Positions 20,372 through 62,826 of a DNA stretch of 64,000 nt are shown in pieces (position 1 is the stretch's first letter; each line of letters starts with the position of its first letter). Both the position numbers and the translations under genes were made by a program. The notes below the pieces were generated by a model. That model ran no database searches and had not been told where the DNA came from. It saw nothing but the letters and a program-made list of their open reading frames with translations. The stretch lies in NCBI GenBank assembly GCA_963723515.1, contig CAVRQT010000002.1, positions 576,001 through 640,000 on the forward strand, read 5' to 3'. The DNA comes from Vulcanimicrobiota bacterium (lineage in GTDB: Bacteria > Vulcanimicrobiota > Vulcanimicrobiia > Vulcanimicrobiales > Vulcanimicrobiaceae).

Positions 20372-20784
20372 ATCATATCCTCGCCCAGTGAGACGAGCTC
20401 TCCGTTTTCCGGAATGATGCGTGTGACGACGCCCGCATAGTCAGAAGTGATTTCGTTCATCAACTTCATCGCTTCGATGATGCAAACGACTTGGCCAACC
20501 GTCACGCGATCGCCGGCCTTGACGAACGGTTCGGCCCCCGGAGAGGCCGCGGTGTAAAAGACGCCGACAAGCGGCGCGGTGATCCGTTGCACGTTCGCGG
20601 GAGGCTGTGCCGCGGACTGGGTTGCCGTAACCGGCTGCGGAACTTTGGCTGGAACCTCCGCATCAGCGGACGGACTGCGCCGCACGAGTTCAAAGATCTG
20701 GTCGCCGAGCTTGACCTTCAGCGCATCCAGGTCGTGCTCGTGCATGATCGCCAGCAACTCTTTGATCTTCTCCTGCTCGTTCAA
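20350..20784 (-). CDS. accB: Acetyl-CoA carboxylase biotin carboxyl carrier protein. Probable TTG start at 20784; the frame is also open upstream into the repeat element.
   Basis: APLVGVFY and IIEAMKLMNEI biotinylation motif. Confidence 0.93.
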   Translation of the reverse strand: MNEQEKIKELLAIMHEHDLDALKVKLGDQIFELVRRSPSADAEVPAKVPQPVTATQSAAQPPANVQRITAPLVGVFYTAASPGAEPFVKAGDRVTVGQVVCIIEAMKLMNEITSDYAGVVTRIIPENGELVSLGEDMIWIEPSA

Positions 20785-20788
20785 TTCC

Positions 20789-20896
20789 AAGGCGCTCCGT
20801 TCTAAACTCCGCGCCCCCCAGCCGAGCTGGGGCCCCCAAACCATCGCTCCCTCACAATCATTGTTGAGTCCTAATTCCCCGTGGGGTCGCGTAAAA
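20789..20896 (-). repeat. Dispersed fixed-spacer leader element, copy 1 (between hisS and accB)
   Basis: TTACGCGACCCCACGGGGAAT-19 nt-TGAGGGAGCGA...CCCCAGCTCGGCTGGGGGGCGC...AGAACGGAGCGCCTT; same modules at 55437-55630 and 60728-60923. Confidence 0.92.
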
Positions 20897-55297: not shown

Positions 55298-55431
55298 CAG
55301 ACCGCTAGGCGCTTGCGCCCTTTTCGCCGGCGTGCCGAAATCACGCGTCGTCCGTTCTTCGTCGCCATCCGCTTCAAGAAGCCGTGCACCCGTTTGCGGC
55401 GGCGGTTGTGCGGCTGAAAAGTGCGCTTCAT
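55297..55431 (-). CDS. rpmH: 50S ribosomal protein L34 (not in the ORF track)
   Basis: Manual translation [44 protein letters not shown]. Confidence 0.97.
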
Positions 55432-55432
55432 G

Positions 55433-55630
55433 CTAGAAGGCGCTCCGCTCTAAGCGCAGCTTGTCCTGAGCGCCGTCGAAGGACGCCCCCCAGCCGAGCT
55501 GGGGCCCCCCGGCCATAGCTCCCTCACGCGTGACGACCCGCCACGATTCCCCGCGGGGTCGCTTAACTAACATCATAAACCTCCACAGCTCCCGCACGAT
55601 CATCGGCACGCCAACCTCGCGAGGTCGCAT
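55433..55630 (-). repeat. Dispersed fixed-spacer leader element, copy 2 (one degenerate plus one full unit), open as a 65-codon ORF
   Basis: GCGACCCCGCGGGGAAT-19 nt-TGAGGGAGC...CCCCAGCTCGGCTGGGGGGCGT-CCTTCGACGGCGCTCAGGACAAGC...AGAGCGGAGCGCCTT; stop lies 1 nt before the rpmH ATG. Confidence 0.92.
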
Positions 55631-55724
55631 AAACTAGCATACACTAATGGAAAGAGGCGGCCGCTTCGCGCGGCCGCATACAGCCACCTAGTATAGGGGT
55701 CCGCGTCAGCAAGCGTCAAGGCCG

Positions 55725-55900
55725 CTTTCCACACGTGTGGACAACGCTGTGGACAACGGTCGGTTTGGTGCGTGACATACGGTGTCGGAAGGCGCATGAA
55801 CAGTACGTTATCGCGCATGTCAAGAGGCAAAAGCGGCCTGCGAAAAATGTTTGTTTCGGGCGATAAAACCGTCATTTTCGGGCTGTGGATAAGTGGATAA
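55725..55900. promoter_or_regulatory. DnaA-box cluster upstream of dnaA (oriC part 1)
   Basis: TGTGGATAA at 55884 (perfect), AGTGGATAA at 55892, TGTGGACAA at 55736 and 55748. Confidence 0.85.
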
Positions 55901-60720: not shown

Positions 60721-60926
60721 ATGTCACTTACGCGACCCCACGGGGAATGCTGCTTCGCGAATTATCGTGAGGGAGCGAAGAATAGAATTGTTGTTACGCG
60801 ACCCCGCGGGGAATCGAGGCGCTTCAAAAATGGTGATGGAGCGATAGTCTTGGGCGCCCCAGCTCGGCTGGGGGGCGCCCTTCGACGCGCTCAGGACAAG
60901 CTGCGCTTGGAGCGGAGCGCCTTGTA

Positions 60927-60927
<1 letters not shown>
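60721..60927 (+). repeat. Dispersed fixed-spacer leader element, copy 3 (two tandem units, 66-nt period), open as a 68-codon ORF
   Basis: Units start at 60730 and 60796, each with a 19-nt spacer; hairpin 60857-60873; TAA overlaps the gyrB ATG. Confidence 0.93.

Positions 60928-62826
<1,899 letters not shown>

Follow-up and report, generated by a model that had tools for sequence, protein, structure and literature searches.

The window, the whole 64-kb stretch of DNA analysed here (64,000 nucleotides), covers positions 576001-640000 of contig 2 in a Vulcanimicrobiota genome (G000) of 2.11 Mb, which is assembled into 4 contigs and has a GC content of ~60%. Within the window, copies of one short element precede the genes accB, rpmH and gyrB. 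The four units of the original prediction, with their 19-nt stretches, right boxes and hairpin, can be read exactly where they had been reported, and their occurrence lies far above chance. When the window was searched for the 17-nt left box GCGACCCC(A/G)CGGGGAAT with up to three mismatches allowed, four occurrences with 0 mismatches were found; 0.92 matches are expected by chance at ≤3 mismatches, and four were reached in 1 of 100 shuffles. The 17-nt hairpin CCCCAGCTCGGCTGGGG, termed P2 below, occurs three times, compared with 0.00 expected. The GGAG tails were also located as described, 9-11 nt before the start codons TTG 20784, ATG 55431 and ATG 60927. The segment 60721-60927, which had been singled out as a leader element, is exactly a 68-codon ORF running through the element. 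The features of the three loci are listed below, with scores in bits from the covariance model and left boxes from the motif search of the window.

gyrB locus
60721..60927, plus strand: mini-ORF of 68 codons; its ATG lies 10 nt past the TAA of the upstream gene, and it reads unit a and the complete element b
60731..60777, plus strand: unit a, an extra tandem 5′ unit; P1 60731-60737 with 60771-60777; the loop consists of CCACGGGGAAT, the 19-nt variable stretch 60749-60767 and TGA
60732..60748, plus strand: left box of unit a
60795..60921, plus strand: element b, complete, long variant, upstream of gyrB, 138.6 bits
60797..60803 with 60837..60843, plus strand: P1 of element b
60798..60814, plus strand: left box of element b
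60815..60833, plus strand: variable stretch of element b
60857..60873, plus strand: P2 hairpin of element b
60874..60878 with 60917..60921, plus strand: P3 of element b, GGCGC with GCGCC
60879..60904, plus strand: 26-nt insert of element b
60905..60907 with 60911..60913, plus strand: P3b of element b
60914..60917, plus strand: Shine-Dalgarno GGAG of element b

rpmH locus
55584..55630, minus strand: degenerate extra tandem 5′ unit upstream of the rpmH element; contains the mini-ORF ATG
55433..55630, minus strand: mini-ORF of 65 codons through both units
55439..55565, minus strand: element upstream of rpmH, complete, long variant, 134.8 bits
55546..55562, minus strand: left box
55527..55545, minus strand: variable stretch
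55488..55504, minus strand: P2

accB locus
20791..20893, minus strand: element, complete, short variant, 115.2 bits; the upstream gene ends at TGA
20874..20890, minus strand: left box
20855..20873, minus strand: variable stretch
20816..20832, minus strand: P2

The TAA of the gyrB mini-ORF (60925-60927) overlaps the gyrB ATG (60927-60929), and the TAG of the rpmH mini-ORF (55433-55435) lies 1 nt before the rpmH ATG (55429-55431). The accB copy contains no complete mini-ORF, and its ATG frame stops within the loop. The usual frame has no stop here and continues in frame into accB (TTG start 20782-20784), because this copy lacks the 5′ start and has lost the stop. Upstream of the rpmH tandem units, at window position ~55700-55740 on the minus strand, there is a sigma-70-like motif TTGACG-N18-TATACT; the rpmH copy is therefore likely to lie in a 5′ leader and not intergenically between two genes.

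Secondary structure of the element

The alignment of 104 copies from 18 genomes to the model defines an element of approximately 100-130 bases with four helices, P1, P2, P3 and P3b. P1 comprises 7 bp and connects the left and the right box of the original prediction. P2 corresponds to the hairpin that had been described as invariant. This holds within the present genome, whereas across the family the P2 sequence varies and is found as CCCCATGC...GCATGGGG, as CCCCACGC...GCGTGGGG and in longer forms. P3 pairs GGCGC with GCGCC and has variants including GGTGC/GCACC. P3b is a 3-bp mini-hairpin within P3 and is flanked by two GGA/GGAG motifs. In the 5′ to 3′ direction, the element starts with an ATG on or just past the upstream stop codon. 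This is followed by one or two 5′ units, in which P1 closes a loop of 31-36 nt with the ends CC-N-CGGGGAAT ... TGA and a free middle, then by the conserved G-run, P2, and P3 enclosing P3b, and finally by a stop codon and the start codon of the next gene within ~12 nt.

Paired cells of the alignment amount to 96.5%, compared with 78.3% in shuffles (none of 500 as high) and at most 52% for slid partners. Changes on both sides were observed at 15 of the 20 pairs, among them all seven pairs of P1. RNAalifold returned the same four helices, with five pairs in a lengthened P3 and compensatory changes at 15 of 19 pairs, in a run on the same model-fitted alignment (A3), and it is therefore not an independent check. 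G.U pairs outnumber A.C pairs by 19 to 7 (p=0.03), an imbalance more readily explained by base pairing in RNA of the sense strand than by a feature that is symmetric in DNA. The middle of P1 is occupied by a tandem G.A/A.G in 21 of 103 distinct copies, including those of the window that had been taken as canonical, and by G-C/C-G in 67. The data show that the four helices are under selection, and the strong covariation supports the suggestion that the element is a structured RNA. The unpaired motifs CCNCGGGGAAT and the G-run have remained nearly invariant (1.7-2.0 bits) although the stem sequences have changed. Such motifs would not be required by a passive hitch-hiker and hint at a specific partner. 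A pseudoknot between the CC-N-C of the loop and the G-run was also considered; its middle position frequently holds A or G, neither of which can form a pair with G, the G-run is invariant, and no support was obtained either way.

Several observations concern the composition of individual copies. The loci L112-L123 of one genome (G110) carry an alternative 5′ unit, GCGAGGCC ... GGCCGAGC, on the same 3′ module, again with the tandem G.A or its Watson-Crick replacement. The family is therefore modular. The P3 insert of the long variants, CCTTCGAC-N4-GCTCAGGACAAGCTGC (60879-60904, and 55456-55482 on the minus strand), is part of a second, commoner dispersed repeat with the sequence TTCGAC....CTCAGGACA.GC, and the long variants thus look nested or composite. 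This second repeat has 38 matches at ≤2 substitutions in the genome of the window, among them four near-tandem copies on contig 3 (examples are C3:373707-374267 and C2:583621, the latter at ~7621 of the window). Another genus has a different hairpin at this position of P3. At the atpA locus, which lies just beyond the window (C2:570106-570200, minus strand), an additional short degenerate 5′ unit with a GAGGC...GCCTC stem is found, and one open frame extends from the atpH TAAATG through both units to the ATGA at atpA.

The variable stretch of the P1 loop

The stretch of 19 nt enclosed by the two boxes is the low-information middle of the P1 hairpin loop. Its length had been given as exactly 19 nt. 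This is correct for 8 of the 10 intact 5′ units of this genome, but two units have 18 nt, and in the family the P1 loop varies between 31 and 36 nt (104 copies, 18 genomes), with 33 or 34 nt in 78 of the 104 copies. In this genome, the loop is 33 nt long in seven copies and 32 nt long in two. The ~17 central columns of the loop contain 0.1-0.4 bits, and its ends (CC-N-CGGGGAAT ... TGA) are highly conserved. In many copies the variable stretch opens with ATCGTG and closes with AATCGTGA, and the variable stretches of one genome resemble one another. The 19-nt stretch does exist, but its length is not strictly constant and its sequence is not entirely unconstrained.

The best non-self matches of the 10 variable stretches in their own genome cover 14-16 of 18-19 bases, and those of shuffled sequences have means of 14.5-15.8 and a maximum of 18. 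Complementarity of the variable stretches to their own flanks does not exceed that to the flanks of other loci (differences of -0.02 and -0.16 kcal/mol, p=0.46 and 0.98). For this comparison the paired differences and p values are given, the absolute means being distorted by an outlier of ~1e5 that is probably a copy without a defined window. The folding energies of the loop itself are not below those of shuffles (mean z +0.42).

Copy number and distribution

Motif scans and a covariance model built from seven copies of this genome identified nine loci in its 2.11 Mb at E≤2e-8; two further covariance-model matches at E ~0.4 are noise-like. Three of the nine loci are situated inside the window, and the extrapolation to many more copies genome-wide therefore fails for this genome. 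Eight loci are located directly upstream of a NifU-like gene, atpA, accB, rpmH, gyrB, pheT, rbfA and rplW, respectively. The ninth is a decayed copy downstream of a putative succinyl-CoA synthetase alpha-like gene, named from its translation.

In public genomes, with one genome per species, the exact P2 hairpin plus four bases was found at 30 loci. The whole element is present at nine of them, all in records titled Vulcanimicrobiota or Candidatus Baltobacteraceae. The other 21 loci, which belong to other phyla and to archaea, have 19 specified bases in common with the element and nothing more. In the family of the window's genome, model matches were obtained in 64 of 151 sampled genomes and 35 of 78 genera (58 of 145 genomes when six unpublished ones are left aside); the best 23 candidates per genome were scored, and the per-genome counts of this search are to be read as "at least". 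A phylum-wide sample gave matches in 22 of 72 genomes of this family, the window's genome counted, versus 0 of 79 genomes from 20 other families. Three fully searched genomes of other genera contain 30, 52 and 71 copies. In the searches made, the matches are confined to one family of soil bacteria in the Vulcanimicrobiota/Eremiobacterota.

The comparison with Rfam suggested in the original prediction matched no family. No Rfam 15 family reached its gathering score in the window, and at E≤10 the matches were at chance level, the best of them having 21.5 bits against a cut-off of 52 bits. An index-level search of the literature on Eremiobacterota, WPS-2 and Baltobacter found no description of the element, and in the literature on repeats with translationally coupled small ORFs a review citing work on MIRUs was alone relevant. 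The sequence family appears to be undescribed so far. At the archaeal loci L026, L027, L038, L045 and L052, a conserved block of ~150 nt surrounds the same 17-nt palindrome. The hosts are five marine records (Poseidoniales/Thalassarchaeaceae and one with a Methanobacteriota title), and the block, which is unrelated to the element, may be an RNA gene of these archaea.

Gene context and the mini-ORF

The prediction that every copy lies in the sense orientation was correct for the genome of the window (nine of nine) and did not hold for the family. Among 100 copies with enough flanking sequence, a codon-usage score placed 69 in sense and 11 in antisense to the downstream gene and left 20 unclear. 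By the same score, 45 of these copies lie between two sense genes, 10 between divergent genes, 10 between two antisense genes and one between convergent genes. Ten of the 11 antisense copies are found between two genes of the opposite strand. The GC skew places the origin at ~635 kb of contig 2, in the stretch around the rpmH leader, and eight of the nine copies of the genome are on the leading strand. Replication direction was considered as the cause of orientation and rejected on the single discriminating case, the pheT copy, which is on the lagging strand and still follows its gene.

The start codon of an ORF of ≥60 codons is located within 12 nt of the element end in 59 of the 100 copies, and this is not so in 41. 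Of 79 downstream ORFs, 71 match Pfam. Their functions are very mixed and include ribosomal proteins, ATP synthase, gyrase, flagellar genes, transporters and assorted enzymes. Junctions were regarded as tight if the upstream stop is ≤40 nt from the element start and the downstream start is ≤12 nt from its end. A complete mini-ORF is present at 31 of 36 tight junctions, compared with 19 of 64 copies in other contexts; the accB copy of the window is among the five tight junctions without one. Overall, 50 of the 100 copies have no complete ORF. Of 77 frames that carry an ATG on the 5′ side, 40 terminate at the 3′ boundary, compared with 31 of 223 other frames. These ORF statistics are moderately strong, because open frames of ~35 codons are common by chance in GC-rich DNA and the conserved 3′ flank contains a stop in two of the three frames; the counts also include copies from the same genome, which are not independent.

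In the genome of the window, the mini-ORF is coupled to both the upstream stop and the downstream start at seven of the nine loci. Its ATG overlaps or adjoins the upstream stop (TAATG, TGATG), and its own stop overlaps or adjoins the next start (TAAATG, TAAGTG, TAATTG, TAATG, ATGA). At the atpA and rbfA loci, the same conserved DNA is read in a different frame. The iscU and gyrB copies contain compensating indels (-1/+4 and +1/-1) by which the frame stays open. The 31 junction ORFs are distributed, by hand count, over all three frames of the conserved 3′ module (8, 12 and 11), so it is openness that is conserved and not a peptide. This shows that the element sits at stop/start junctions and that an open frame is kept there in any of the three frames.

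Empty sites and relationships among copies

The one other genome of the same genus (G001), with ~75-85% identity in the flanking DNA and a completeness of 77%, has no model match at E≤0.001. The comparison of orthologous loci that had been recommended found all three checked junctions, which are filled in the genome of the window, to be bare in this relative and to show the classical coupled arrangement of overlapping genes: pheS-pheT with GTGA, atpH-atpA with ATGA and rplD-rplW with an 11-nt overlap. The element is thereby shown to be an insertion/deletion polymorphism within one genus. The empty sites could be precise losses and not the ancestral state. At another site, the same relative contains a relic consisting of the 3′ module.

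Several junctions are occupied in more than one genus: atpA in four (G000, G017, G110, G090) and rplW, rplF, rbfA, gyrB and nifU in two each. The copies found at the same junction in different genera have identities of 0.47-0.69 and are no closer to each other than unrelated copies. The nearest neighbour of a copy is in its own genome in 61 of 104 cases, compared with 22 expected. Taken together, these observations suggest either that the element has been gained repeatedly, lineage by lineage, at preferred sites, or that its copies evolve in concert and are lost precisely. They do not agree with a single leader conserved since ancient times.

The original prediction had also proposed looking for a co-occurring transposase, and the result speaks against one of the Y1 type. 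A Y1 transposase (PF01797) was detected in six of 151 genomes of the family (five of 150 when one unpublished genome is left aside), and in one of them together with the element. The domain was not found in the genome of the window or in the genomes with 30, 52 and 71 copies; in this search the controls were matched in 6 of 14 known genomes. A reverse transcriptase (PF00078) was found in none of five genomes, including those with 30, 52 and 71 copies, which are 77-94% complete. Terminal inverted repeats were not seen by inspection, the ends AATGTTGT-TAC ... GCGCC-TTTAAA-ATG not being inverted copies of each other. A target-site duplication is not evident either, as the start-codon types at the two ends are uncorrelated across copies. 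A composite master element was sought in a single-contig genome; it contains three orphan 3′ modules and four orphan 5′ modules, none of them paired within kilobases. Since the ends of the element contain (A)ATG strings, gain by microhomology and precise loss at start codons are conceivable, which is speculation.

Proposed explanation and alternatives

We propose that the element is a MIRU-like, probably mobile, translational-coupling cassette, i.e. a lineage-specific modular intergenic repeat that acts as RNA in the transcript of the host operon, and we consider this explanation likely. A MIRU-like repeat was one of the readings offered by the original prediction, and it is supported by the position of the copies inside operons, their mostly sense orientation, the ribosome-binding site with a coupled mini-ORF, and presence or absence within a genus. 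According to the proposal, the element would be cotranscribed with the operon, and ribosomes that end the upstream gene would reinitiate on the mini-ORF. While translating it they would melt P1-P3, which otherwise bury the GGAG (half of it lies within P3, 9-11 nt before the start), and, by terminating right on the next start codon, they would pass translation on. Operon coupling would thus survive the insertion, and the mini-ORF peptide itself would be irrelevant. The element would spread, or would have spread in the past, without a Y1 transposase or a reverse transcriptase and would persist where coupling stays intact. The same reasoning has been put forward for the MIRUs of mycobacteria. We infer that the mini-ORF is translated, that the GGAG is unmasked and that the element is mobile.

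A cis-regulatory RNA leader would account for part of the same evidence. In such a leader, a lineage-specific protein or small molecule would bind the loop and the G-run and gate the GGAG and the start codon; the leader would have been duplicated, and the mini-ORF would be secondary. The covarying stems, the near-invariance of the unpaired motifs across genera, the conserved loop length of 31-36 nt, the recurrence of junctions in several genera and the copies abutting a start codon are all in agreement with this possibility. However, the downstream genes have no common theme, genera differ in copy number (0 to 71), and all of the checked junctions are empty in a genome of the same genus. Furthermore, same-locus copies across genera are no more alike than unrelated ones, the nearest relative lies in the own genome far more often than expected, and 11 of the 80 copies whose orientation could be called run antisense to the gene that follows. 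We therefore regard the leader as rather unlikely. It and the coupling cassette are not mutually exclusive. The compensatory changes at all seven P1 pairs and the excess of G.U over A.C argue against the proposal of a site acting at the DNA level, either a two-part promoter of the ECF type (GGAAT-N18-GTG) or a protein-binding palindrome. GGAAT and GTG/GTGA do occur at a roughly fixed spacing and the copies do lie upstream of genes, but GTG is replaced in several copies (e.g. by AGA, GCG or TCA), and many copies are located inside an operon between genes that are tightly coupled, which makes such a site very improbable.

The start-to-stop open frames running through many copies, 60721-60927 among them, could be taken as a family of small protein genes with a conserved product of ~35-68 residues. 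This reading has a very slight chance of being correct: the junction ORFs use all three frames of the 3′ module, two different peptide types are encoded by the same DNA in the genome of the window alone, and a complete ORF is missing in half of the copies. The programmable guide or scaffold RNA of the original prediction, whose 19-nt stretch would pair with a target like a spacer, was suggested by the conserved flanks around a variable stretch of near-fixed length. The middle of the loop is unconstrained, and pairing with the own genome and the own flanks is at control level. The partly conserved ends of the stretch, the likeness of copies within one genome and the inferred embedding in a translated mRNA also stand against a guide, the probability of which we consider close to negligible.

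The coupling cassette can be extended to a bolder model, which is tentative and on the whole doubtful. The element would then be an enzyme-free mobile structured-RNA cassette that homes to coupled stop/start junctions and to the fronts of start codons. A putative family-restricted factor would read CC-N-CGGGGAAT and the G-run, and host operons would have adopted the cassette as a portable, possibly regulatable translational coupler.

Comparison with known systems

The closest parallel is found in the MIRUs of Mycobacterium, which are described as mobile, as inserting at start codons and as having a coupled internal ORF in a review (PMC12548453, citing Supply et al. 1997). The present element resembles them as a short repeat between co-oriented operon genes and in their orientation, with a small ORF inside it that is coupled at either end to the adjacent gene, and it is apparently mobile without a transposase of its own. 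Tandem copies occur in it as well: there are tandem 5′ units at gyrB, rpmH and atpA, and doublets of the whole element in other genomes, in one genus with the two elements 18 nt apart. In contrast to MIRUs, it is modular, with alternative 5′ units and P3 inserts, its stop/start spacings vary (TAATG, TAAATG, ATGA and others) without a single rule, and it has four strongly covarying helices and conserved loop motifs. To our knowledge, a covarying four-helix structure with conserved loop motifs has not been reported for MIRUs. Because the host belongs to the Vulcanimicrobiota, a phylum other than that of Mycobacterium, and the likeness is one of description and not of sequence comparison, the element is to be seen as an analogue of MIRUs and not as a demonstrated relative.

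REP/BIME sequences with their RAYT proteins and IS200/IS605-derived repeats are likewise short, GC-rich, hairpin-forming and dispersed. TTAC or TAC precedes many copies of the element, and TTAC is the target of one member of the IS200/IS605 group. The element differs from these repeats in the near absence of co-occurring Y1 genes, in having only one of 100 copies between convergent genes, and in stems that covary rather than being fixed. Structured cis-regulatory leaders with many copies per genome, such as T-box leaders, share covarying stems, conserved loops, a variable stretch in a scaffold and a position next to start codons. However, the genes downstream of the element have no functional theme, its presence varies within one genus, and no Rfam family was matched even at E≤10.

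The phylum was barely cultured until recently, and a 2022 paper reports its first cultivated representative. The element provides a natural example of an insertion on the overlapping stop and start codons of essential operons (ribosomal protein, ATP synthase, gyrase, tRNA synthetase) that would survive by bringing its own start, open frame, ribosome-binding site and stop. Its spread is not accounted for by known transposases. Approximately 1000 natural variants of a compact "bicistronic coupler" may be used for the study and engineering of translational coupling. Genome annotation is concerned as well, since the mini-ORFs and N-terminal extensions such as the one possible at accB are liable to be mis-called as genes. 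The gyrB gene of the window (60927-62826, plus strand) itself appears as two ORFs, 60927-61652 and 61543-62826. The alignment with the GyrB of a relative runs in frame 2 as far as ~61529 and continues in frame 3 from ~61564, which indicates a +1 frameshift or an assembly error between these two positions.
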